A DNA stretch of 64,000 nt from Prevotellaceae bacterium UBA4301 (GTDB lineage Bacteria; Bacteroidota; Bacteroidia; Bacteroidales; Bacteroidaceae). The translations under genes and the position numbers were made by a program. This document shows positions 2,973-37,903 of this stretch, piece by piece. Positions within the stretch are counted from its first letter, which is position 1. Every line of letters starts with the position of its first letter. The notes beneath the pieces are model-generated. The model was not told where the DNA came from. It was given only the letters and a program-made list of their open reading frames with translations, and made no database searches. The stretch lies in contig DGUV01000075.1 of assembly GCA_002395775.1 (NCBI GenBank), positions 30,677 through 94,676 on the forward strand. Direction: 5' to 3'.

Positions 2973-4409
2973 ATGGCTAAGGACAAAGTGATGTACGTCT
3001 GCTCGGAATGTGGACAGGAAGCAACGAAGTGGGTGGGCAAGTGCCCGGCCTGCGGACAGTGGAACACCATGAAGGAATTCAAAGTCGGTCCCTCTCCCCG
3101 CTCCTCTCGCGGGGGAGAGAGCCTCGCCCTACACTTGCAGGGCAGGGAGCGTCCACAGTTGTTACAGGACATTCGGGCCGACCAGGAAGTGCGCATCGAC
3201 ATGGGCGACCAAGAGCTCAACCGTGTCCTGGGCGGTGGACTGGTGCAGGGCAGCCTCGTCCTGCTTGGCGGCGAACCGGGCATCGGCAAGAGCACACTCA
3301 TCCTGCAAACCGTCCTCCGCCTTCGTGGCAAGAAGGTGCTCTACATCAGCGGGGAAGAAAGCGCCCGCCAAATCAAACTTCGCGCCGACCGTCTCTCTCC
3401 CTCACGGGGGGAGCAGGGAGAGGGGCTTCTCATCCTATGCGAAACCTCTCTCGAGGCCATCTACGAACACATCCAGGAGGAACAGCCCGACCTGGTGGTC
3501 ATCGACTCCATTCAGACCATCTCCACCGATTCCGTAGAATCCTCCCCGGGTAGCCTCAGCCAAATACGCGAATGCGCCGCCTCCTTGTTGAAGTTTGTCA
3601 AATCGTCAGGACAAGCCCTCCCCCCCACGGGCGAAGCGGGAAGAGGGACCGGACCAAGCTGTTCCATCATCCTCATCGGCCACATCACCAAGGAGGGCAC
3701 GCTGGCCGGGCCCAAGGTGCTGGAGCACATCGTCGATTGCGTCCTCCAGTTCGAGGGCGACCAGCACTACATGTACCGCATCCTGCGCAGTCAGAAGAAC
3801 CGCTTCGGCAGCACCTCCGAACTGGGCATCTATGAAATGTTGCAAGGCGGCCTGCGCCAAGTTTCCAACCCCAGCGAGCTCCTTCTCACCGAAGGCCGGG
3901 AGGGACTGAGCGGCATCGCCATCTGTTCGGCCATCGAGGGCGTGCGTCCGCTCCTCATCGAGACTCAGGCGCTGGTCTCCACCGCAGCCTACGGCACTCC
4001 GCAGCGCTCCGCCACGGGTTTCGACACGCGTCGCTTGGCCATGCTTCTGGCCGTACTGGAGAAGCGCGTGGGCTTCAAACTGGCGCAGAAGGATGTCTTC
4101 CTCAACATCGCCGGCGGACTGCGCGTCACCGACCCTGCCATGGACCTCAGCGTCATCGCGGCCGTCCTTTCCAGCAATGTGGACGCGGCCATCGAAGCCG
4201 ACACCTGCATGTGTGGCGAAGTGGGTCTCTCGGGTGAGATTCGTCCCGTGGCCCGCCTCGAACAGCGCATTGCCGAAGCCGAGAAACTGGGCTTCCGCCG
4301 CATGCTCGTCCCGGCACAAAGCTTCAAGGGCATCAATCAGGACCGACTCAACATAGAGATTGTTCCCGTCCGCCGCGTCGCCGAGGCCGTAAGGGCACTC
4401 TTCGGATAA
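2973..4409 (+). CDS. radA: DNA repair protein RadA
   Basis: It has an N-terminal zinc ribbon (CSECGQEATKWVGKCPACGQWNT), a Walker A motif (GGEPGIGKST), the KNRFG motif, and a Lon-like C-terminal domain. Confidence 0.95.
   Translation: MAKDKVMYVCSECGQEATKWVGKCPACGQWNTMKEFKVGPSPRSSRGGESLALHLQGRERPQLLQDIRADQEVRIDMGDQELNRVLGGGLVQGSLVLLGGEPGIGKSTLILQTVLRLRGKKVLYISGEESARQIKLRADRLSPSRGEQGEGLLILCETSLEAIYEHIQEEQPDLVVIDSIQTISTDSVESSPGSLSQIRECAASLLKFVKSSGQALPPTGEAGRGTGPSCSIILIGHITKEGTLAGPKVLEHIVDCVLQFEGDQHYMYRILRSQKNRFGSTSELGIYEMLQGGLRQVSNPSELLLTEGREGLSGIAICSAIEGVRPLLIETQALVSTAAYGTPQRSATGFDTRRLAMLLAVLEKRVGFKLAQKDVFLNIAGGLRVTDPAMDLSVIAAVLSSNVDAAIEADTCMCGEVGLSGEIRPVARLEQRIAEAEKLGFRRMLVPAQSFKGINQDRLNIEIVPVRRVAEAVRALFG
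3088..3150. repeat. Family A GC-rich palindromic arm(s), in-frame in radA
   Basis: cctctccccgctcctctcgcgggggagagag plus gccctacacttgcagggc. Encodes GPSPRSSRGGESLALHLQGRE in the linker after the zinc finger. Confidence 0.7.
3393..3427. repeat. Family A arm, in-frame in radA
   Basis: ctctctccctcacggggggagcagggagaggggct. Its reverse complement nearly equals the mnmA left arm. Encodes SPSRGEQGEG. Confidence 0.75.
3614..3650. repeat. Family A arm, in-frame in the radA ATPase domain
   Basis: agccctcccccccacgggcgaagcgggaagagggacc encodes ALPPTGEAGRGTG. Compare the mnmA right arm, which encodes [11 protein letters not shown]. Confidence 0.8.
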
Positions 4410-4973: not shown

Positions 4974-6629
4974 ATGACACGAGACCTACAACTGCGCATC
5001 ACGCCACGCGATGCCTACAACGAACAATCCATACGCCGATATGTGGCACGCGAACAGGGATGGGACGAACGCACCATCACCTGCGTACGCACACTGCGCC
5101 GGAGCATCGATGCCCGTCAGCGCGACATCTATGTCAACCTCTCCGTGCGCGTCTTCATCAACGAACAACCGCCCCAGGACGAGTTCCAGCCCGTGGAATA
5201 CCACGACGTGAGCGACCGCCCGCAGGTCATCGTCGTCGGTGCCGGACCGGGGGGACTCTTTGCTGCCCTCCGGCTCATCGAACTGGGCCTGCGCCCCATC
5301 GTGGTGGAGCGTGGAAAGAACGTGCGCGACCGCAAGAAGGACCTGGCCCGCATCCGACCCGAACAGCGCATCGACCCCGAGAGCAACTACTCCTTTGGCG
5401 AGGGCGGCGCAGGCGCATACTCCGACGGCAAACTCTACACCCGCAGCAAGAAGCGCGGCAACGGAGAAAAGATTCTCCGCGTCTTCTGTCAGCATGGCGC
5501 CAGCCCCAGCATTCTCTCCGATGCCCATCCCCACATCGGTACAGATAAACTGCCCCGCGTCATCGAGAACATGCGCGAAACCATCCTCCGCCATGGTGGC
5601 GAGGTGCACTTCGAGACGCGCATGAGCGCGCTTCTAATTCAAAATTCAACGCTCGGCCCAAAGGGACGCTTGCAGAGCGAAGCGGGGCAAGAATTCAAAA
5701 TTCAGCATGGGTCTGCACCTTATGTCGAAGGCATTGCCTGTGCCGACGGACGGGAGTTCCATGGCCCAGTCATCCTGGCCACGGGCCATTCCGCCCGCGA
5801 TGTCTATCGGTGGCTCTACGACAATGGCATAGAACTCGAAGCCAAGGGCCTGGCCGTGGGCGTCCGCCTCGAACATCCTGCCGAACTCATCGACCAGATA
5901 CAATACCATAATAAGCACGGACGCGGCAACTACCTGCCCGCTGCCGAGTACAGCCTGGTGCAACAGGTGGACGGACGTGGGGTCTATAGCTTCTGCATGT
6001 GTCCGGGTGGTTTCGTGGTTCCTGCCGCCAGCGGCCCCGAACAGATTGTGGTCAACGGCATGAGCCCCTCCAACCGCAACGGCCGATGGAGCAACAGCGG
6101 CATGGTGGTGGAACTGCGCCCCGAGGACGTAAAACAAATTCAAGATGAGGGAGAAGGCGACGTCCTAAAGATGATGCATTATCAAGAGGAACTGGAGCGC
6201 ACATGTTGGCAGCAAGGCAACATGCGCCAGACGGCACCCGCCCAGCGCATGGCCGACTTCGTCAACAACCGCCTCAGCTACGACCTCCCCGCATCGTCCT
6301 ATGCCCCCGGCCTCATCAGCAGCCCCCTCCACTTCTGGATGCCCGAACCCATTCGCCATCGACTGCAGCAGGCCTTCCAGACGTGGGGCCGACAGAAGCA
6401 CGGTTTCCTCACCAACGAGGCCACCGTCATCGGCGTGGAGACGCGCACCAGCAGTCCCGTACGCATCGTGCGCAATCCCGACGACCTCCAGCACATCCGT
6501 CTCCGCGGCCTCTTCCCCTGTGGCGAAGGCGCCGGCTACGCAGGCGGCATCGTCAGTGCCGGCGTCGATGGTGAGCGCTGCGCCGAAGCGGCATTGCAGT
6601 ACTTGGAGGAGGTAAGAGGTAGGAGGTAG
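4974..6629 (+). CDS. FAD-dependent oxidoreductase (COG2509-like)
   Basis: 551 aa with the dinucleotide-binding motif VVGAGPGGLFAAL, ATGHSARD, and a C-terminal GEGAGYAGGI. Confidence 0.75.
   Translation: MTRDLQLRITPRDAYNEQSIRRYVAREQGWDERTITCVRTLRRSIDARQRDIYVNLSVRVFINEQPPQDEFQPVEYHDVSDRPQVIVVGAGPGGLFAALRLIELGLRPIVVERGKNVRDRKKDLARIRPEQRIDPESNYSFGEGGAGAYSDGKLYTRSKKRGNGEKILRVFCQHGASPSILSDAHPHIGTDKLPRVIENMRETILRHGGEVHFETRMSALLIQNSTLGPKGRLQSEAGQEFKIQHGSAPYVEGIACADGREFHGPVILATGHSARDVYRWLYDNGIELEAKGLAVGVRLEHPAELIDQIQYHNKHGRGNYLPAAEYSLVQQVDGRGVYSFCMCPGGFVVPAASGPEQIVVNGMSPSNRNGRWSNSGMVVELRPEDVKQIQDEGEGDVLKMMHYQEELERTCWQQGNMRQTAPAQRMADFVNNRLSYDLPASSYAPGLISSPLHFWMPEPIRHRLQQAFQTWGRQKHGFLTNEATVIGVETRTSSPVRIVRNPDDLQHIRLRGLFPCGEGAGYAGGIVSAGVDGERCAEAALQYLEEVRGRR
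5636..5704. repeat. Family C element, in-frame in the oxidoreductase gene
   Basis: acgctcggcccaaagggacgcttgcagagcgaagcgggg is bracketed by two copies of aattcaaaattca. It is homologous to the reverse complement of 46077..46120. Confidence 0.7.
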
Positions 6630-6635
6630 GAGATT

Positions 6636-7721
6636 ATGGACAAAGACACTTACGAGAAGCAACGGGCATTTGCCGGCGAGAAGAAGCCTTCCATGAAGCG
6701 ACGCTGCGTGGGCCACGACTACACCGAGCGCCAAATGTACATGGTCACCATGACCGTCGAAGGCCGTCGCCCGCTGCTCGGCACGCTCGTAGGCAACAAC
6801 GAAACCGATGCCCAAGTCGAACTCACAGAACTCGGGAGGGCGGTGGAAGAAGAATGGTGGGCATGTACGCAACATCATCCAGAGATAGAAGTTATTGCCT
6901 TGCAAATCATGCCAGACCACATACATGGGATTTTATTTGTAAGGGAAAAAATGGAGAAGCCCTTAGGCATGGCTCTTCGAGGATTCAAACAAAGCTGTAA
7001 CAAGCACTTCCGCAGCATCATTCTAAAAAAAGAGGTCCCGTCTGTTGCGTCTGTTGCGCCAGTCCCGTCTGTTGCGTTGCCAACGCAACCTACAATACCC
7101 CAAACGCAACCAACAACACCCCAAACGCAACCAACAACCCCCCAGCGCCCAGCCTACGACCGCAACCACGGCCTCCTCTTTGCCCCCGGCTACAACGACA
7201 AGCTCCTCCTGCGCGCCGGCCAACTGGAAGTATGGAAAGCCTACCTGCGCGACAACCCACGGCGCCTTTTTGTCAAGCGCCAGCATCCCGAATTATTCCG
7301 CGTGCGCTTCGACCTCACCATCGGCAGCCAGACCTACTCGGCCCTGGGCAACCACTTCCTGCTCAGCCACCCCCTGCGCATAGCAGTGCAATGTTCGCGC
7401 CGCATGACCGAGACCCAGATAGAGCAACGGGTGGAGCAGGCCCTCGAAGCAGCCCGCCAAGGGGCAGTACACGTCTCCCCCGCCATTTCGCCCGGTGAGA
7501 AAGCCGTCATGCGCGCCCTCCTCAATGCCCACCGCCCCATCATCTTCATCGAGGAAAACGGCCTCACGCCCTACACCAAACCCGGAGGTGAGCTCTTCGA
7601 AGCCTGCAACCGAGGCCAACTGCTCATCCTCGCCCCATGGGAGCACCACAACGAGCGCATACTGATAACGCGAGACAAATGCCTCGCGCTAAACCAAATG
7701 GCAGCAGAAATCTGTAAGTAA
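6636..7721 (+). CDS. REP-associated tyrosine transposase (RAYT)/IS200-like Y1 HUH domain protein with a C-terminal extension
   Basis: GHDYTERQMYMVTMTVEGRRPLLG...IMPDHIHGILFV (HUH motif) ...GYNDKLL...AYLRDNPRR (Tyr motif region). It also has a proline-rich repeat insert and about 150 extra C-terminal residues. Confidence 0.7.
   Translation: MDKDTYEKQRAFAGEKKPSMKRRCVGHDYTERQMYMVTMTVEGRRPLLGTLVGNNETDAQVELTELGRAVEEEWWACTQHHPEIEVIALQIMPDHIHGILFVREKMEKPLGMALRGFKQSCNKHFRSIILKKEVPSVASVAPVPSVALPTQPTIPQTQPTTPQTQPTTPQRPAYDRNHGLLFAPGYNDKLLLRAGQLEVWKAYLRDNPRRLFVKRQHPELFRVRFDLTIGSQTYSALGNHFLLSHPLRIAVQCSRRMTETQIEQRVEQALEAARQGAVHVSPAISPGEKAVMRALLNAHRPIIFIEENGLTPYTKPGGELFEACNRGQLLILAPWEHHNERILITRDKCLALNQMAAEICK
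7035..7141. repeat. Palindromic tandem-repeat insert inside the RAYT-like ORF
   Basis: gtcccgtctgttgcg occurs twice. The central perfect palindrome is gttgcgttg-c-caacgcaac. ccccaaacgcaaccaacaaca then occurs twice. The region encodes PSVASVAPVPSVALPTQPTIPQTQPTTPQTQPTTPQ. Confidence 0.85.
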
Positions 7722-7739
7722 CCAACCCCTTACGGGCAA

Positions 7740-7880
7740 GATTCCCAATCATCGCCGAATCACTACCCAATCATCGCAAATTTACTTACCAATGATGAGC
7801 CGATGATTGGTAAGTGATTTCGTGATCATTGGTAATCTATTTTCTGATCATTGGGAATCTATTTCCTGATGATTGGGAAC
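7740..7880. repeat. Dyad-symmetric array of 22-bp-spaced CCAATSATS boxes
   Basis: Three cccaatcatcg-type boxes start at 7744, 7766 and 7788. Four inverted gatsattgg boxes have their attgg cores at 7806, 7828, 7850 and 7873. The symmetry centre is near 7800. Confidence 0.85.
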
Positions 7881-7883
7881 CAA

Positions 7884-7920
7884 ATCAAAAGAGCGCCCGC
7901 AACCCATCAGTTGCGAGCGC
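7884..7920 (-). terminator. Hairpin terminator for the convergent genes
   Basis: Stems gcgcccgcaac / gttgcgagcgc pair at 10 of 11 positions. On the minus strand the hairpin is followed by TCTTTTGATTTG. Confidence 0.5.
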
Positions 7921-7977
7921 CCATCTCAAAATCGTTAAACGTTAAACAGGGCAAAGCCCGATTAAACTGTTAAACTT

Positions 7978-9408
7978 TTATTGGGTTTTACCCAAAATTA
8001 TATTCACCAGTGCCGTCACGTCAGCGATAGACCTACTGCCATCGTTATTCACATCGGCTGCCTTCATATCATAGTTGTCAGACTCCGTTGCCTTACCCAG
8101 AATGATGTTCACGAGAGCCGTCACGTCAGCAATAGTCTGGGAACCATCCCTGTTTACATCGCCAGCCAGAGTCGTTTCAGCCTCAATGGGCAATACCAAT
8201 TCAGCTGTACCCGTGTATTCCAGCCACGCCTTATTCGCAGGCATCGCCGTTACCGTTTCATCGGGTTTCACGAATCCCAACTTCCCCGAGGCCGTGATGC
8301 CAAGGACGTACTTTTGGGGTTTACCCTTCTCATCAACATCTATTTTGTTGTTTGCATCGAAGGATGCTCCATTCGTTGTTGTAGTACCTTGGGTTCCAAC
8401 GGAAGCTCCTGTGTACTTGTCAAAATACATAGTCCCATCGGTATTGCAGAAGAAAGTGCCTTTCAGCAGATTTGCACCTGTATAAGAGGTAGATGGTGTT
8501 GCACTAGAAGCCACAACTGTTGGTGCACCTTCGGGTACGATATAGTTCCCTGTCTTACTGCTGCATTCGAGCAGGACTGGCGTACATGCAGGAACACTTC
8601 CTTCGATTGCCTCTATCTCAACAGTGCCGTCTTCACCGATGTTCGCAACAGCATAGGCGCTCTGTATATTTCCCCCGATTGTGTAAGGGAATGCAGTGTA
8701 ATATGTTGCGTACCATTTCCCTCCATAGGAGAATGATGGATTCACATTTAATGCAGTAACTGGCTCAATGTACCACTTGTGTTTGGCATTAGAAGAACTG
8801 TAGTTCTCGGTCATACCAAAACTTCCGCCCTCATCCAAGAAGTCTTCTGTACCGATTGTAATTGTCTTTGAAATATTATAAGATGGGACAGCCCCTGTTC
8901 CAGTTAGTTTTTCTGACACACGGTACATTGTTGAAGCCCCTGTTCCCGATACTTTTTTTACTGTAGCGAAAAGGTTGTTGAAGGTACAATTGATATTACT
9001 TGTTACATACTCTCCTGTTGTAAGTTGTACTAATCCCGTGGATTGCCCTTGGATGTCATAGTTGTCATCGGAATTCTGTTTTAGGTATATAATTGTAGAG
9101 GGTAGTTCACATGCCGAGTCATCCACCATGTGAATGTCTGTCTTCAGGTATGCACCGGCACAAGATAAGGCTGCAGGAACACCATAGTCATCTGCTATTT
9201 TCACAAATAACATGGTATAACTAAACATGTGCTTGGCCCCGTTTCCCGCAGTTGCAATAACAGTTGAATAATCGAACTTATTGTTCTCCAAACTGATGTA
9301 ATTGCCCGTACCGACATTCTTCACACGGTAATAGCCCGTTCCGTTTAACTGAGCATAAGCAGTAAGCGTTATCAATAGCAGGAACGAAATTACATAAATC
9401 TTTTTCAT
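7978..9408 (-). CDS. Secreted hypothetical protein with two C-terminal dockerin-type repeats
   Basis: It has a signal peptide (MKKIYVISFLLLITLTAYA). It ends with DVNRDGSQTIADVTALVNIILGK and DVNNDGSRSIADVTALVNIILGK. The body is paralogous to the C-terminal module of the neighbouring giant protein. Confidence 0.7.
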   Translation of the reverse strand: MKKIYVISFLLLITLTAYAQLNGTGYYRVKNVGTGNYISLENNKFDYSTVIATAGNGAKHMFSYTMLFVKIADDYGVPAALSCAGAYLKTDIHMVDDSACELPSTIIYLKQNSDDNYDIQGQSTGLVQLTTGEYVTSNINCTFNNLFATVKKVSGTGASTMYRVSEKLTGTGAVPSYNISKTITIGTEDFLDEGGSFGMTENYSSSNAKHKWYIEPVTALNVNPSFSYGGKWYATYYTAFPYTIGGNIQSAYAVANIGEDGTVEIEAIEGSVPACTPVLLECSSKTGNYIVPEGAPTVVASSATPSTSYTGANLLKGTFFCNTDGTMYFDKYTGASVGTQGTTTTNGASFDANNKIDVDEKGKPQKYVLGITASGKLGFVKPDETVTAMPANKAWLEYTGTAELVLPIEAETTLAGDVNRDGSQTIADVTALVNIILGKATESDNYDMKAADVNNDGSRSIADVTALVNIILGKTQ

Positions 9409-19296: not shown

Positions 19297-19303
19297 TTCT
19301 TAA

Positions 19304-19332
19304 GGAGTTAACGACCTGCGGTCGAGGAGTTA
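19304..19332. repeat. Family D module (GGAGTTAA-hairpin-GGAGTTA), inverted relative to 19835..19948
   Basis: ggagttaa cgacc tgc ggtcg a ggagtta. Confidence 0.8.
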
Positions 19333-19441
19333 TATTGGGAGTTATGTGGGGAGTTATATTGGGAGTTATATTGGGAGTTATGTGGGGAGTTATGTGGGGA
19401 GTTATGTGGGGAGTTATTGTTCACTGGAGTTATGTTGAGAC
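19326..19441. repeat. 12-bp tandem repeat (GGAGTTATRTKG), 7 units plus 2 degenerate units
   Basis: Units start at 19326, 338, 350, 362, 374, 386 and 398. Degenerate units start at 19410 and 19426. The array overlaps the last codons of the four-helix-bundle ORF. Confidence 0.9.
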
Positions 19442-19812
19442 TTGGCGGTAGAGGCCGAGGATTTCTCTCTTATTCCCTTGCAATAGGCATTAAGGTATAC
19501 GCTAGCACCTTCAAGAGAGTGATTGAGTTCTTCATGTTCTTCAGAACTAATGTAATCCAGATCGCGAGAAAGCATAATATAAAAACGACATTCTTCCAAA
19601 CTGCCTTGGGCAATGTTAAGGAAACGAAGTTTATCAGCTATGCTGAGCTTTTTATATCCTTCGGCAATATTAGCCGTTATTGATACGGCAGCTCTTTGGA
19701 ATTGTGACGCAAGACCATAACGCTCATAATCTGGGAATTTACGAGTTACTTTGTAAGTCATTAGCACAAACTCATAAGCCTTCTGCCATGCAATTATATC
19801 CTTGAATGTCAT
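19414..19812 (-). CDS. Four-helix-bundle protein (23S rRNA intervening-sequence protein / Avd-like family)
   Basis: 132 aa with WQKAYEFVLMTYKVTRKFP...RAAVSITANIAEGY...LNIAQGSLEE, the family signature. Confidence 0.85.
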   Translation of the reverse strand: MTFKDIIAWQKAYEFVLMTYKVTRKFPDYERYGLASQFQRAAVSITANIAEGYKKLSIADKLRFLNIAQGSLEECRFYIMLSRDLDYISSEEHEELNHSLEGASVYLNAYCKGIREKSSASTAKSQHNSSEQ

Positions 19813-19834
19813 GTATTCTTTTTTTATTACCTTT

Positions 19835-19948
19835 TAACTCCTCGACCAAAGGTCGTTAACTCCTTTTATTACCTTTTAACTCCTCAACTATGGTTGTTAA
19901 CTCCTTGCTCAAGGAGCATTAACTCCTCGACCAAAGGTCGTTAACTCC
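19835..19948. repeat. Four chained family D modules (TAACTCC-hairpin-TTAACTCC)
   Basis: Modules lie at 19835-63, 19877-904, 19898-926 and 19920-48. Their stems are cgacc/ggtcg, caac/gttg, tgctc/gagca and cgacc/ggtcg. Confidence 0.85.
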
Positions 19949-19953
19949 TTTTA

Positions 19954-20268
19954 TTACATCATCCCCAGTTCCAACTTCGCTTCTTCGGACATCATGTCCT
20001 TGTCCCACTCGGGTTCGAAGACCAGATTGACATCGACGTGGCGGAGGCCATCGATGGTCTCGAGCTTCTGGCGCACGTCCTCCATGATGAAGTCGGCGGC
20101 AGGGCAGTTGGGGGCGGTGAGCGTCATATCGACCTGAAGCTCGGTGGCATCGTCGGAGAGTTCGATGCGATAGATGAGTCCGAGGTCATAGATGTTGACG
20201 GGGATTTCGGGGTCATAGACGGTCTTGAGGAGGTCGATGACTTTTTCTTGTATCTCTATTTGGTCCAT
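19954..20268 (-). CDS. DUF59/MIP18-family Fe-S cluster assembly protein (SufT/PaaD-like)
   Basis: VYDPEIPVNIYDLGLIY...MTLTAPNCPAA. The start was set at the ATG at 20268 to avoid overlap with radC. Confidence 0.75.
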   Translation of the reverse strand: MDQIEIQEKVIDLLKTVYDPEIPVNIYDLGLIYRIELSDDATELQVDMTLTAPNCPAADFIMEDVRQKLETIDGLRHVDVNLVFEPEWDKDMMSEEAKLELGMM

Positions 20269-21082: not shown

Positions 21083-21122
21083 TAACTCCTGCGCCAAAGG
21101 CGCTTAACTCCCCTTTAACTCC
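21083..21122. repeat. Family D module plus an extra TAACTCC box
   Basis: taactcc tgcgcc aaa ggcgc ttaactcc cctt taactcc. The stem differs from other copies but stays complementary. Confidence 0.8.
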
Positions 21123-31182: not shown

Positions 31183-32430
31183 ATGAAGAATATAGCTGTA
31201 CTGATATCGGGCGGCGTGGACAGCGCCGTAGTGGTTCACCAATTGTGTGAACACGGTTACAAACCCGACCTTCATTATATTAAGATAGGTATGGAAGGCG
31301 AGGACTCGTCTTGCTCGGCCGAGGAGGATATTGAACTCTCGCAGGCCACGGCAAGGAAGTATGGTCTGAAGCTGGAAGTCACCGACCTGCAGAAAGAATA
31401 CTGGGAAAAGGTGGTGGGCTATGCCATAGAGCGCGTGAAGGAAGGACTGACGCCGAACCCCGACGTAATGTGCAACCGACTCATCAAGTTCGGAGCCTTC
31501 GAGGAACGCATCGGCAAGGATTACGACCTCGTGGCAACGGGGCACTATGCAACACGCAAGGCCCCTCTCCCTGCTCCCCCCGTGGGGGGGAGAGTCTTGC
31601 CTTTCCTGTTGAATGATGTTGAACTAAAGACAGAAACGCTGGAGGACATTGCCCTCGAAGGAGAAGCCCTCCCCCCCACGGGGGGAGCGGGGAGAGGGGC
31701 CATTTTTCTGGGCACCGCCAAGGACCCCGTGAAGGACCAGACGGACTTCCTTGCCCAACTCACCTACGAACAACTCCAGCATACCATCTTCCCCATTGGT
31801 CACCTAATGAAGGAAGAGGTGCGGGACATTGCCATCCGGGCAGGATTGCCCAGTGCGCGCCGTAAGGACAGTCAGGGCATCTGCTTCCTGGGCAAGATAA
31901 ACTACAACGACTTCCTGCGCCGTTTTCTGGGCGAACAGGAAGGCCGCATCATCGACATTGAGACGGGTAAGGTGGTGGGTAGGCACCGGGGATTCTGGTT
32001 CCACACCATCGGGCAGCGCAAGGGATTGGGACTGAGCGGCGGCCCCTGGTTCGTGGTGAAGAAGAACGTCAAGAAGAACATTGTCTTCGTGGCCCGCGGC
32101 TGGGACACGCAGTTGCAGTATGGTCACGACTTCCGCCTGGCCGACATGCACTTCATCACAAGCAATCCTTGGGAAGAAGAGACGAATGAAGAGGGGAACG
32201 TGAAGCGCGGAGAATCAGAATTAATCAAGAAGGGCTTGCCCATTTCGTTCAAGATTCGGCACGTCGATCACTTCATGCCCGGCATCATCACACTGGACGA
32301 CGAAGGCTATCACATCCACTCCGACGAACCCATTCAGGGCATTGCCCCCGGCCAGTTCGGATGCATCTACGACGCCGAACACCGCATCTGCTACGGCAGT
32401 GGCGAGATAGCCATATACAAAGACCGATAA
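31183..32430 (+). CDS. mnmA: tRNA 2-thiouridine(34) synthase MnmA
   Basis: It has the PP-loop [29 protein letters not shown] and [10 protein letters not shown]. The start was set at the ATG at 31183. The upstream ORF extension is translated repeat sequence. Confidence 0.9.
31561..31700. repeat. Family A inverted doublet inserted in-frame in mnmA
   Basis: Left arm: gcccctctccctgctccccccgtgggggggagag. The reverse complement of the right arm is gcccctctccccgctccccccgtgggggggagggc. The core is about 70 bp. The region encodes [47 protein letters not shown]. Confidence 0.85.
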
Positions 32431-34848: not shown

Positions 34849-34973
34849 GGCCCCCTCCCCTTACCCTCCCCGAGGGGAGGGAGTTGATACTTACATATAG
34901 AATTATCTTCTGCCATATTTTCCTCTTATTTGTAACCACTCCCCTCCCCTCGGGAGGGGTAAGGGGGTGGGGC
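34849..34973. repeat. Family A inverted doublet, between the TonB receptor and PnuC-family cistrons
   Basis: Left arm: ggccccctccccttaccctccccgaggggagggag. The reverse complement of the right arm is gccccacccccttacccctcccgaggggaggggagtgg. The AT-rich core is 52 bp. Confidence 0.85.
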
Positions 34974-34978
34974 TTCGA

Positions 34979-37435
34979 TTAGAACTTGAGCGTCACGCTG
35001 CCCATTGCCGTGAAGCCAGCCATGGGAACATAGCCAATCTGATAATAACGGTTCTGCTCGGGATAGTCACTGCCGACGATGGCCGAGTACACCCAGCCCG
35101 ACGAAGCATAGCGACGATTGAAGATGTTGCGCAAATCGACACCGAAGACGATGTGCTTCAGACCTTTTCTCATTTTCTCATTTCCTCCACCTCTCATTTT
35201 CAGGTCATATCCCAGGTGGATGTTGGTCTGCGTGTACTTGGGCAGCGACCGATCCTTGTTGCAGGTGTTGTCGAGATACTGTCGCGAGACGAAGTTGGTG
35301 TGCCACGTAGCCTCGAAGCCCTTGACGTGGAAGTCGGCAAAACCATTCAGTATGGCCGCAGGCGAGAAGGCGAGCGTGGAATTGTCGTAGTGGACGGTGG
35401 TGGCCGGAAGGTCGTTCCAGTCGGCATCGTAGGTCTCTACGACCTCGTCGAAGTCACGAATCGTATTCTTGCTGATGGCGGCATTGGCTTCCAGAGAGAA
35501 CCACTTCGTCACATCTACTCCGGCCGACAGCTCCATGCCCAGCCTGTAGCTGCGATGGATGTTGGTGGTCAGTTTCTCACCGATGTCACTGTAGAGGCCC
35601 GTCTGCACGAACTGGTTGTCGTAGTACATCGAGTAGAGCCCGATGCCGGCGTGCCAGCGACTGCCTTGATAGTTGTAACCCAGTTCCACGTCGTGCAGGC
35701 TCTCTGCCTTAGGGGCAGGATAGTTGCCGTTGTCGGTGAAGTTGTTGCGCTCCGGTTCACGATGGCTGAGGGCATACGACACATAGGCCGAATGGCCATT
35801 CTGGTGGAACGAGATGCCCACCTTGGGGTTCAGGAAGTCGTACTGTTTCTTGATGTCGAGGAGATGGGCCTTGTAGGTGCCGTCCGCCTGCTTCACGAAA
35901 CTGTCGTGCGTGCCGCTGGTTATATATCCCACATGGCGATACTGCACGTCGGCAAAGGCATCCCAGGCCTTCGTGATGTGGAACATGCCCTTGAGGAAGA
36001 TTTGTCCGTCGGTCTTCGTGGCATCGTTGTCGTAGTAGTGATACCAGCCATGCTTGTCGCTGAAGAGGTCGGCCTGCAACTGGTCGTTGCTGGTGTAGGT
36101 AAGGTAACCATAGTGGTTGGCCTCGAAGTTCTGCAGCGAGACTCCGCCGATGACATCCCAACGGTTGTCCTGATAGTTGACGTTCCACACCATTCCGTAG
36201 CCGTCCTGCTTCATGCCCTTGCGGCGCACGTAGTCGGCCTTGCCCAGCGATGAGCCGTCGGAGAGCACCTCGGGCAGACCAAACTTCTTGGGCTTATTCT
36301 GGAGACGGAAACTCTGGTAGTAGCCGTGTCCGTGGGTGTAATGGAGCGTTCCGCTGGTGGTCCAGTGGTCGCTGATGTGCCACGAGAGGTTCAGCAAGTT
36401 GTGATTCTGCCAGAAGTTGTCGGTGGCACCGGGATAGAAACTTCCGTCTTTCATCTGATAGCGGCCGACAGTCCATCCGCCGTTCCAGTCGGGCGTAAAG
36501 GCTTCGTAGAGTTCGTTGTAGCGTCCGAGCCCCATCTTGTAGAGGTCCTTGTAGGTCTTCACCCCGTCGTAGGAGTTCAGACTATACTCATTGTCGCCCG
36601 GGCATACGCCGTTCCAGGCCTGTCCCGTCCGCTCGTAGTTACCGATATTCTTGTAACTCAGCTTCAGCGTCCCATCATTATTAATATAGGTAAGGCCGCC
36701 ATAGTAACTGCCGCTCCGTCCGTCGGTGCCATGGATGAATCCGTCGGTGCGCGTTCCGTGGTAGGCGCCGTCGATGATGACACCTCCCCCGGCCCCTCCC
36801 AAGGAGGGGTGATTGTCCTTGCCCTTTTTCCTCTGCAGCAGCCCTGTGGAGAACGAGCCGCCGAAGTTCCAGGTGTTGTAGGAACCGCCCGAGGCCGAAA
36901 GTTCGAGCGAGGGGAAGGGGTTCGGGGCCTTCGTTTGCAGGGCCACCGTACCGCCAAAGGCTCCGTCACCATTGGTAGATGTACCCACACCGCGCTGTAT
37001 CTGGACGTTGGAGAGCAAAGCTGAGTAGGAGTTCATGTTGGCCCAGAAGACACACTGGTCCTCGGGCGAATTAAGTGACACGCCGTCCAGTGTCACGTTG
37101 ATGCGCGAGTCGCCAGCCCCACGGATGCGCATGTAGGTCGTTCCCGTGCCCAGTCCGTTCTCGCTCCAGGCCATCACGCCCGGGGTGCGGGCAAAGAGGA
37201 AGGGCAGTTCCTGTCCCGTCCGGGAGAAGGTCTCCAGTTGCTTGCGGTCGATCTTCGTCACGGCAAAGGGAGCATTCGCAGGAGCCTTTACGGCCTTCAC
37301 AACTACTTCGTTCAGAGCCTCCATCTTCATTGAGTCGGAGACCTCATTCACTTGGGCAAATCCCACCTGTGTCATACTCATCATGAGCACGACAGCTACT
37401 AATTTCTGCATAGTATTCTTATTTATAATGTTCAT
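34979..37435 (-). CDS. TonB-dependent outer-membrane receptor, probably for thiamine uptake
   Basis: 818 aa with a signal peptide, a plug domain, beta-barrel repeats and a terminal aromatic residue (TLKF). It lies directly downstream of a TPP riboswitch. Confidence 0.85.
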   Translation of the reverse strand: MNIINKNTMQKLVAVVLMMSMTQVGFAQVNEVSDSMKMEALNEVVVKAVKAPANAPFAVTKIDRKQLETFSRTGQELPFLFARTPGVMAWSENGLGTGTTYMRIRGAGDSRINVTLDGVSLNSPEDQCVFWANMNSYSALLSNVQIQRGVGTSTNGDGAFGGTVALQTKAPNPFPSLELSASGGSYNTWNFGGSFSTGLLQRKKGKDNHPSLGGAGGGVIIDGAYHGTRTDGFIHGTDGRSGSYYGGLTYINNDGTLKLSYKNIGNYERTGQAWNGVCPGDNEYSLNSYDGVKTYKDLYKMGLGRYNELYEAFTPDWNGGWTVGRYQMKDGSFYPGATDNFWQNHNLLNLSWHISDHWTTSGTLHYTHGHGYYQSFRLQNKPKKFGLPEVLSDGSSLGKADYVRRKGMKQDGYGMVWNVNYQDNRWDVIGGVSLQNFEANHYGYLTYTSNDQLQADLFSDKHGWYHYYDNDATKTDGQIFLKGMFHITKAWDAFADVQYRHVGYITSGTHDSFVKQADGTYKAHLLDIKKQYDFLNPKVGISFHQNGHSAYVSYALSHREPERNNFTDNGNYPAPKAESLHDVELGYNYQGSRWHAGIGLYSMYYDNQFVQTGLYSDIGEKLTTNIHRSYRLGMELSAGVDVTKWFSLEANAAISKNTIRDFDEVVETYDADWNDLPATTVHYDNSTLAFSPAAILNGFADFHVKGFEATWHTNFVSRQYLDNTCNKDRSLPKYTQTNIHLGYDLKMRGGGNEKMRKGLKHIVFGVDLRNIFNRRYASSGWVYSAIVGSDYPEQNRYYQIGYVPMAGFTAMGSVTLKF
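36781..36811. repeat. Family A arm, in-frame in the TonB receptor gene
   Basis: cacctcccccggcccctcccaaggaggggtg. On the minus strand it encodes HPSLGGAGGGV. Confidence 0.7.
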
Positions 37436-37437
37436 AC

Positions 37438-37514
37438 TCTCTACGCCAGCATTACCTGGTTCAGATTCTTAGGGTCTGTTCTCAGCCACGCCAAAAGACG
37501 AGGCACCCCTGATT
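37438..37514 (-). promoter_or_regulatory. TPP (THI-box) riboswitch
   Basis: The minus strand reads caggggtgcctcgtcttttggcgtggctgagaacagaccctaagaatctgaaccaggtaatgctggcgtagagag. The GGGGUGC, CUGAGA, ACCC and GAACC..GGUAAUGC..GCG elements appear in the canonical order. The element ends 2 nt before the ATG. Confidence 0.85.
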
Positions 37515-37522
37515 AACGACTG

Positions 37523-37530: not shown

Positions 37531-37903
37531 CGAATAATTCGCCGACCCTGCAATAGTCTGCGTACTTTTTATATAAAATCATGATAACGTGCGCTTAGGA
37601 GCAGCGTCCAAAACATATAGAAGCATAGGCCCATACACATAATAGCATAGGCGTATGCTCATAGGAGCATTCCTTGTTCCTTGCCGAAGAACGAATATTC
37701 GCCGTCGAGGAACATAAATTCCCCGTCGGCGAACATTCGTTCTCTGACGGGGAACATATTTTACAGACAGCCCTTTCGAGGGCCCATTCCTAACTGCAAA
37801 GATAAGAAAAAAACAGGAGCAAAAGCAAATAAATGTGCCTATTATTTGCCGGGAAAGTCCAGTCCCCTCTCGTAGAGTGTCGAGAAGATGACCTGCGCTC
37901 CCC

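Follow-up and report, generated by a model that had tools for sequence, protein, structure and literature searches.

A phased palindromic array of CCAAT boxes beside a HUH gene, a candidate dispersed intergenic repeat of rumen and gut Bacteroidales

The genome of Prevotellaceae bacterium UBA4301 harbours a palindromic array of seven CCAAT-type boxes, located between the 3' end of a gene coding for a HUH protein and a convergent gene coding for a dockerin-domain protein. The array is part of a 64,000-nucleotide stretch of DNA (contig DGUV01000075.1 of assembly GCA_002395775.1, positions 30,677 to 94,676), hereafter called the window, and coordinates are those of the window unless another locus is named. 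With moderate confidence, we regard the array as one copy of a lineage-restricted, low-copy, dispersed and non-autonomous palindromic intergenic repeat of rumen and gut Bacteroidales (Prevotella-like), referred to below as the CCAAT element. An initial annotation, made from the sequence alone, had noticed the array, and had allowed for its repeat unit being unique to this locus. This is not the case, since the same 22-bp unit, in the same layout, occurs in seven further genomic contexts. The best reading of the CCAAT element is that of a palindromic minisatellite located at gene 3' ends and akin to repetitive extragenic palindromes (REPs) and to MITEs (miniature inverted-repeat transposable elements).

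Organisation of the array

A pattern search located seven CCAATSATS boxes, three forward and four reverse, which occupy 132 bp of the array at 7744-7880 and start at 7745, 7767 and 7789 on the plus strand, and at 7802, 7824, 7846 and 7868 on the minus strand. The window contains eight matches to this motif in total, seven of them in the array, compared with 3.8 ± 1.8 (maximum 7) in shuffled sequences, which confirms the seven-box dyad array described initially. The spacing had been given as 22, 22 and 23 bp; the value of 22 holds and that of 23 does not, the boxes being exactly 22 bp apart throughout both arms. Similarly, the box starts 7822, 7844 and 7867 are corrected to 7824, 7846 and 7868, flanking bases having been counted into the boxes.

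A repeat search returned direct-repeat families with a 22-bp spacing, and Tandem Repeats Finder gave a period of 22 in each arm. The inverted arms, delimited at 7739-7796 and 7803-7860, are 58 nt long each, 72% complementary, and separated by a gap of 6 nt. In the forward units, the box corresponds to the last 9 nt of each 22-bp unit. Since the array starts 23 nt past the TAA stop codon (7719-7721) of the HUH-like gene, and the T-run of the terminator of the convergent gene touches its last unit, it occupies the space from the stop codon to this terminator (Table 1). The terminator is outside the repeat family, yet the same junction between array and terminator is present in L159 and L001/L166 (loci fetched for comparison are designated by L and a number).

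Table 1. Coordinates of the parts of the array and of the genes surrounding it
Feature	Position	Strand	Remarks
FAD-dependent protein gene	4974-6629	+	upstream, 6 bp before the HUH gene
HUH gene, 361-aa fusion of a Y1 HUH domain (IS200/RAYT fold) and a DprA-like domain	6636-7721	+	adjoins the array
Leader-like segment CCAACCCCTTACGGGCAAGATT	7722-7743	+	from the HUH stop codon to the first box
Left arm, three forward 22-bp units	7744-7797	+	boxes CCAATCATC 7745-7753, CCAATCATC 7767-7775, CCAATGATG 7789-7797
Centre/loop AGCC	7798-7801		read from the sequence
Right arm, four reverse 22-bp units	7802-7880	-	boxes GATGATTGG 7802-7810, GATCATTGG 7824-7832, GATCATTGG 7846-7854, GATGATTGG 7868-7876
Intrinsic terminator of the convergent dockerin-domain gene	7881-7922	-	hairpin 7922-7891, T-run 7890-7881, abuts the array
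Dockerin-domain gene	7978-9408	-	convergent, downstream of the array

Occurrence at other loci

Metagenome contigs were searched with a dyad pattern consisting of two forward boxes 22 ± 1 bp apart, followed by a reverse box within 2-12 nt. Among 241 million records, 44 stretches matched, of which ten, from rumen-type assemblies, possess the same 22-bp unit and layout (L120, L121, L123, L127, L132, L136, L137, L138, L142 and L159). Scanning all fetched loci with a position weight matrix added L116, a contig from a metagenome-assembled genome (MAG) of the uncultured Bacteroidales RUG14659. A profile of the peptides obtained by reading through the arrays, run against 5.8 billion predicted proteins, added L168 and L169; it retrieved two spurious open reading frames (ORFs) only, both at an already-known locus. 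L116, L137, L138, L142, L168 and L169 represent one locus (locus P) with indels at the borders of the element, and after merging of alleles eight distinct contexts are obtained, the window included. The flanking genes comprise GH30, a SusC/SusD pair with valS, GH88, a HEPN/MNT toxin-antitoxin, another SusD, polysaccharide-synthesis and dockerin-domain genes. Five of the eight contexts lie between convergent genes, each of the eight has a gene 3' end on one side or both, and in several cases the copy starts 0-25 nt from a stop codon.

When species-representative genomes were scanned for three forward boxes at intervals of 21-23 bp, at least 104 stretches were obtained. Among the matches listed, L116 is the sole true member, and nearly all others are unrelated tandem repeats, i.e., 21-bp coding repeats, other 22-bp arrays and 11-bp arrays. 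The array had no blastn match in 72,556 plasmids and 50,697 phages, and likewise none in viral contigs; the context of the window locus is chromosomal and syntenic.

The spacer variants follow an identical order at unrelated loci, with AATTTACTT innermost, AAATCACTT next and AAATAGATT in outer position, which indicates that whole multi-unit arrays have been copied to unrelated sites. This recurrence also bears on a purely local origin, in which slippage and fold-back duplication would have generated a minisatellite devoid of dispersal or function. Such an origin would be in keeping with the richness of this genome and its relatives in intergenic tandem or dyad arrays of 11-, 21- and 22-bp period (for instance at 19326-19417, 19822-19957, 37613-37762, in the HUH gene itself at 7039-7144, and at L164 5690-6110), and with the differences in unit number between strains. 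It is contradicted by the presence of the same unit, box and order of spacer variants in seven other unrelated contexts, on which ground independent growth at each locus is excluded, and we leave it hardly any probability.

Several observations nevertheless weigh against a dispersed repeat. The 64 kb analysed contain a single CCAAT array, and the searches provided just ten contigs from 241 million metagenome records and two spurious ORFs from 5.8 billion proteins; the family is far sparser than classical REPs. Neither an empty site nor a presence/absence polymorphism was found among the loci examined, so that we infer the mobility of the CCAAT element from its dispersal and not from an observed event. 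Among the loci fetched, we identified neither a gene that might mobilise the element nor an autonomous parent. Furthermore, dispersal within a genome cannot be separated, on the basis of metagenome contigs, from the presence of one or two copies in each of several species, and the taxonomic range is poorly bounded by the stretches listed for species representatives (at least 104).

Conservation and variation of the units

Each repeat unit opens with a variable spacer of 13 nt, which is AT-rich and has TT at its end; the near-invariant box CCAATSATS comes next. A complete element comprises two to five forward units, a centre of 4-6 nt, and two to four reverse units. The centre varies among family members (GAGCC, GAGGC, GGCC, GACC, GGCT, GGGCT and AGTGC), and one subfamily carries an additional mini-hairpin, TACAATGATCAAGCCATCATTGG, next to it. 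Conservation was counted in register over 46 units from seven loci, independently of motif matching. The CCAAT core is conserved at 98-100%, the preceding TT at 85-98%, the two S positions at 65% and 80%, and the spacer at 35-85%. Spacer complementarity between the arms was 0.66 within a locus and 0.68 between loci. As it is no higher within loci, pairing of the arms is best seen as a by-product of their shared units that is not separately maintained. Compensatory evolution of the arms, also considered, was rejected, the same two values showing no signal of it. In addition, the arms are frequently out of register, as in the window, L127 and L136. Judged by these comparisons, the sequence constraint bears on the box and not on the pairing.

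With regard to the initial proposal of an iteron-like set of binding sites, the contrast between the box (96-100%) and the spacers (35-85%), together with the phasing at two helical turns, supports the binding sites, and the phased boxes are probably protein-recognition modules. A reading as iterons or as a replication origin finds no support, the searches of plasmids, phages and viral contigs having given no match. More generally, it is highly improbable that the array serves this particular locus as an operator, an iteron or a centromere-like site for replication, partition or regulation of the neighbouring genes. Such a role would fit the seven sites in dyad arrangement, their phasing at two helical turns and a conservation of the boxes that is far above that of the spacers; known architectures of this kind include 22-bp iterons and, at the ends of Tn7, 3+4 arrays of 22-bp sites bound by the transposase. 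However, besides the missing matches in plasmids, phages and viral contigs, the array is located between two convergent gene ends and not in a promoter, no rep or par gene adjoins it, and the same array is found beside unrelated genes elsewhere. The number of sites also varies freely between strains, and, in a sister lineage, the flanking genes have persisted and the array has decayed.

Close relatives (92-94% DNA identity in the flanks) retain the array, with 3+3 units instead of 3+4, i.e., exactly one 22-bp unit fewer, the missing one being the right-arm unit 7846-7867 in the alignment register. L127 and L136 likewise differ by one unit (4+3 and 5+3). Such changes in unit number between close strains are those that slippage would be expected to give. 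The borders of the array are indel hot spots (L168 vs L169, L137 vs L138, L127 vs L136), which suggests that the CCAAT element is a hot spot for rearrangement or nested insertion. In these three pairs of same-locus alleles, the differences consist of indels of about 100-300 bp, or of another upstream gene, exactly at the array borders.

At two unrelated loci, L121 and locus P, the first box is preceded by a leader of about 24 nt, TC(C)TAAnnCCTnCAGnCnGAnATTG, with 17 of 23 positions in common. The window segment 7722-7743 aligns to this leader only with two gaps, and the homology is thus weak. A 33-nt flank common to L138 and L142 was rejected as proof of a leader, both being alleles of one locus. 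Outside the boxes, comparison of the flanks revealed neither terminal repeats nor a tail shared between loci, and a search of nine copies for target-site duplications (offsets 0-7, lengths 3-9) was negative.

The neighbouring HUH gene

The protein encoded upstream of the array has no significant Pfam match (Y1_Tnp, 14.1 bits vs a cut-off of 23), and reaches 26.7 bits with the NCBIfam RAYT model REP_Tyr_transpos, below the cut-off of 80. In its AlphaFold model (mean pLDDT 80), the HUH and DprA-like domains are connected by a P/T/Q-rich linker, disordered over residues 135-176. Foldseek relates the N-terminal half to IS200/IS605 TnpA and RAYT structures (ISDra2 2xm3, TMt 0.70; RAYT 4er8, TMt 0.56), IS608 being also among the matches of the Y1 fold, and the C-terminal half to DprA (4ljk, TMt 0.48), with Rossmann-type matches to H. 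pylori DprA and ShosA. The label 'RAYT-like' used initially is therefore appropriate for the fold, but the protein, which has the fold and the motifs, is probably not a classical RAYT, in view of its score (26.7 vs 80) and of the extra DprA-like domain. The HUH motif PDH[ILM]HGIL and the Tyr of W..YL.DNPRR are invariant across homologues. This HUH-DprA family counts more than 5000 clusters at 90% identity in Bacteroidales, none of the 120 clusters listed has a Pfam domain assigned, and the gene is single at every locus fetched. A 7-bp tandem repeat (AGGAGGT, 3.7 copies, 6607-6632) was also noticed, extending over the stop codon of the FAD gene and the 6 bp that separate this gene from the HUH start codon.

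The position of the array had been taken as that of a REPIN flanking its RAYT gene, and this link is not borne out. The HUH and FAD genes are absent from all other array-bearing loci examined. Conversely, HUH homologues at 68, 66, 62 and 58% identity are found in unrelated contexts, with neither a CCAAT array nor flanking repeats, and no CCAAT array is present beside the homologues in L003-L008, L164 and L165. The 5' side of the HUH gene is free of repeats, with only the 6-bp gap to the upstream gene. In a sister lineage (L001 and L166, HUH proteins 74-75% identical), the array is not next to the HUH gene but lies beyond a 156-aa ORF and a creatininase gene, still beside the same terminator and dockerin gene. 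Decay of the array in this lineage has taken about 10 of its 45 box positions away from the consensus, compared with 0 of 63 in the window lineage, and the HUH motif and catalytic Tyr are intact despite this decay. Array identity between the two lineages amounts to 77%, and that of the flanking genes to 75-80%. On these figures, copies are intact in some lineages and decay at about the neutral rate in another. Since the contexts of the homologues and of the sister lineage lack it, the adjacency of array and HUH gene is limited to one shallow lineage, and the comparison of loci argues that the array has no association with its HUH neighbour. Proximity to a HUH gene does not amount to a REPIN-RAYT pair unless the association is checked across homologues.

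We consider it decidedly unlikely that the array is a REPIN-like cognate substrate of the adjacent Y1 HUH-DprA-like protein, which would bind its boxes or its single-stranded hairpin, and nick and copy it in trans in the way RAYTs act on REPs. The predicted structure, which combines the IS200/IS605 TnpA/RAYT fold with a DprA-type single-stranded DNA (ssDNA)-binding fold, the invariant HUH motif and catalytic Tyr, and the start of the element directly after the HUH stop codon are in its favour, as are the precedent in the literature and the absence of target-site duplication, which is what HUH-mediated events would lead one to expect. However, the protein is encoded at none of the other array loci, its 58-68% identical homologues lack arrays or flanking repeats, the 5' side of its gene is bare, and the sister lineage combines intact enzyme motifs with a decayed array that two genes separate from the HUH gene. 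Moreover, a huge protein family (more than 5000 clusters) is opposed to a very rare array family, the array has no GT[AG]G foot, its units are not hairpins themselves, and the protein motifs DH[ILM]H and YLRDNP do not match those of TnpA-Y1 subclass 2.6 (NH[LIV]H and YIH[QN]NP). A more plausible cognate site for this enzyme is the exactly conserved palindrome located in its own gene.

This perfect 19-nt palindrome, GTTGCGTTG-N-CAACGCAAC (GTTGCGTTGCCAACGCAAC in full), is found at 7071-7089, where a hypervariable linker separates the HUH motif from the Tyr motif. The linker corresponds to an in-frame dyad minisatellite (7039-7144) that has this palindrome at its centre, and in which GTCTGTTGCG units run forward over 7039-7077 and 21-nt units in reverse over 7082-7144. 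The palindrome has 0 mismatches in 19 of the 19 homologue loci fetched, down to 58% amino acid identity, and, as the third codon positions are frozen, the constraint is on DNA or RNA. A second copy is present in L164, just upstream of the HUH start codon, and none was found elsewhere in the window. The palindrome is unrelated in sequence to the CCAAT array, and resembles the in-frame REP insertions of TnpA-Y1 subclass 2.4 (PMC6006769).

A broader version would make the CCAAT arrays the Bacteroidales equivalent of REPINs, on which the Y1-HUH/DprA-like fusion, ubiquitous and present in single copy, would act in trans. Within the gene of this enzyme lie a frozen 19-nt hairpin and a dyad minisatellite, in frame and built in the same way. 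We find this version very unlikely; if true, it would represent a HUH-repeat partnership of a new kind, with the DprA-like domain bringing the enzyme onto single-stranded arrays.

Folding and possible role at the RNA level

The array is predicted to fold at -33.2 kcal/mol as ssDNA (z = -4.9 vs shuffles) and at -67.7 kcal/mol as RNA (z = -7.6), and long hairpins are likewise predicted for every family member that was tested (z = -4.5 to -6.4). Both predictions being far better than those of shuffled sequences, the potential to form a long hairpin or cruciform, put forward in the initial annotation, is well founded. The onset of the predicted stem is about 12 nt past the HUH stop codon.

The array could be thought of as a stem-loop in the 3' untranslated region, terminating or stabilising the FAD-HUH transcript, insulating convergent transcription or yielding a small RNA, a role that we judge unlikely. 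The predicted hairpin is very stable, as the RNA value above indicates, the siting at gene 3' ends and between convergent genes is consistent, and the plus-strand operon has no other terminator-like site ahead of the array. In E. coli, REPs stabilise upstream mRNA, and affect translation when located less than about 15 nt from the stop codon. Against such a role, the array is followed on the plus strand by GGGAACCAAATC, without a U-tract, and no intrinsic terminator was detected on this strand, the terminator scan finding only the minus-strand one (7922-7891). No Rfam 15 family was assigned at gathering or permissive thresholds, the matches being hairpins at chance level and the best of them a generic one with 24.8 bits vs a gathering score of 84. 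In the innermost pair of boxes, the two S positions show systematic mismatches, the arms are often off register, and their complementarity does not exceed within loci (0.66) that between loci (0.68). Finally, structural need alone does not explain the sequence-specific conservation of the box.

Comparison with known repeats

Full-text literature searches returned no description of a CCAAT-array family. The REP, BIME and REPIN families of Proteobacteria, with the RAYT (TnpA-REP) transposases that belong to them, share with the CCAAT array the status of short, non-coding, hairpin-forming repeats dispersed in intergenic DNA. They too are located at gene 3' ends and in the gaps between convergent genes, and lack target-site duplications. 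As in a REPIN, two inverted arms form one long hairpin, and a Y1 HUH gene adjoins the copy described here. In contrast, the CCAAT array has no GT[AG]G foot (GTAG or GTGG) at the ends of units or array, its arms are tandem non-palindromic 22-bp modules and not single REP hairpins, and its copy number appears to be very low. It also differs from a REPtron in being on the 3' side of the HUH gene only, and this not consistently across homologues, and the HUH protein differs from RAYTs by its 361 residues with a DprA-like domain and by its score of 26.7 bits relative to the cut-off of 80.

Modularity, a variable number of internal units and hairpin potential are features of pneumococcal BOX elements (boxA-boxB(n)-boxC) and of Tn7 and Mu ends. 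The Tn7 ends harbour three (left) and four (right) 22-bp TnsB sites in inverted orientation, numerically like the 3+4 units of the window. The CCAAT element nevertheless lacks the 5-bp duplication, the TG..CA termini, and a transposon body or parent, and its units number two to five per arm, strictly contiguous at 22 bp. A MITE derived from Tn7 or Mu ends, suggested by the 3+4 sites of 22 bp, was rejected in view of the absent duplication, the variable unit number and the lack of a parent.

The otherwise closest Bacteroidales precedent is BrickBuilt, a minisatellite-containing MITE of Porphyromonas gingivalis with a 23-nt tandem unit and 19 intergenic copies (PMC4596501). Both are Bacteroidales elements, dispersed and strictly intergenic, with a 22-23-nt tandem unit made of conserved and variable positions, a variable number of units and a leader segment. 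BrickBuilt is present in about ten to twenty copies per genome, not hundreds (PMC4596501). Its repeats are all direct (1-23 copies), its non-repetitive leader and tail reach up to about 300 nt, and it possesses IS5-type terminal inverted repeats, GAGACCTTTGCA, with occasional duplications at the ends (PMC4596501). The CCAAT element, on the other hand, is a dyad, has no tail common to different loci, and has no sequence similarity to BrickBuilt; the IS5-like terminal repeat GAGACCTTTGCA is absent from window 7700-7930. As regards DDE-type MITEs in general, no consistent flanking direct repeat was observed in the nine copies over the offsets and lengths given above, the entire element is an inverted repeat, and no parent with the same ends is present among the fetched loci.

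In a survey of Y1 HUH proteins, subclasses 2.4 and 2.6 of TnpA-Y1 are described as having in-frame REP insertions and atypical flanking structures, with cases in Bacteroidetes and Cyanobacteria (PMC6006769). The HUH gene of the window is comparable in carrying an in-frame palindrome and a minisatellite in the stretch that separates the HuH motif from the Y motif; its motifs (DH[ILM]H ... YLRDNP), its length of 361 aa and its DprA-like C-terminus fit neither subclass. Both the CCAAT box and the in-gene palindrome are absent from the supplements of this survey that were covered (PMC6006769). The CCAAT element thus lacks defining features of a REPIN-RAYT system (foot, REPtron), of a DDE-type MITE (duplication) and of a BrickBuilt element (direct array, IS5-type ends).

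Proposed mode of propagation

If the CCAAT element is a dispersed, non-autonomous repeat, its boxes would be recognised by a trans-acting protein (a transposase, a recombinase or another binder) that copies or maintains it. This protein would meet the boxes either along a single face of the double helix, at intervals of two helical turns, or in a hairpin, where they would form stacked stems. In lineages without that trans-acting activity, the element would decay. A single-strand hairpin route of the REP/IS200 kind may be favoured over a cut-and-paste DDE route, because of the absence of target-site duplications and of the hairpin-forming design. For the host, the element may be neutral; alternatively, it may act as a stem-loop at the 3' end of the FAD-HUH transcript.

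Other repeats in the window and at the fetched loci

The window contains a second, unrelated dyad array with 21-22-bp units (37613-37762), whose arms (37675-37712 and 37719-37756) are 38 nt long, 79% complementary and separated by 6 nt. It is located between the 3' end of a glutathione-peroxidase gene and a thiamine pyrophosphate riboswitch (37421-37520, minus strand) preceding a TonB-dependent receptor gene. Two further arrays flank, in inverted orientation, a gene coding for a 132-aa protein (19414-19812, minus strand) of the 23S_rRNA_IVP/bAvd-like four-helix-bundle family, namely a GGAGTTAT(G/A)T(G/T)G array (19300-19440, 12 bp, 7.7 copies) and TTAACTCC-containing units of 22/42 bp (19822-19957). 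Short TTAACTCC or GGAGTTAA repeats recur in the window at 21104, 25175 and 29591; in L136, they adjoin the CCAAT array. G/C-rich hairpins of the type CCCCCC-N3-5-GGGGGG, with arms of 32-44 nt, are present at 31560-31701 and 34850-34973, as well as in L009 (about 4290-4318), L136 (1685-1760), L159 (1745-1770) and L001 (about 6590-6620). These hairpins are intergenic, often adjoining terminators or CCAAT arrays, and look like another dispersed repeat family.

Multi-locus direct arrays of 22-bp units were encountered in Bacteroides (L018, L023, L032, L079, L086 and L118, from B. stercorirosoris, B. timonensis, B. oleiciplenus and others), and similar arrays are listed at L033, L042, L069 and L078. 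The Bacteroides units hold CCAATGAT within a small palindrome, e.g., AATCAATGCCAATGATTCCTAC or ATCATCAATACGGATGATGGGT, at several loci per genome; the sharing of CCAATGAT may be a selection artefact of the search pattern. In three MAGs of Alphaproteobacteria (L039, L060 and L064), three direct (C/T)TCCCAATCATCA copies 22 bp apart are found directly upstream of a conserved gene, whose product starts with M(F/Y)DR(F/L)IK.. and has the sequence GPRRAGKTT (P-loop ATPase). Unrelated to the Bacteroidales element, these copies have the appearance of a genuine operator array. Finally, a distinct palindromic family from soil metagenomes is built of 11-nt CAATGTCCAATGAT-type units (AATGTCCAATGATCAATG...CATTGATCATTGGACATT) and occurs at several loci (L122, L124, L126, L128, L143, L146-L148, L150, L152, L157, L160, L162 and L163), including a position directly after a tRNA-like 3' end.

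Concluding remarks

Dispersed intergenic repeats are well described in Proteobacteria and a few other groups, and barely in Prevotella and other Bacteroidales of the gut and rumen, which dominate those microbiomes. The CCAAT element has a distinctive build, consisting of tandem 22-bp modules that carry an invariant 9-bp box and are mirrored about a centre. It could serve as DNA bait for finding the protein that recognises it, and its polymorphism in unit number may be usable as a marker for strain typing. The CCAAT element also accounts for some breaks in assemblies and for some of the hot spots of indels located at gene 3' ends.

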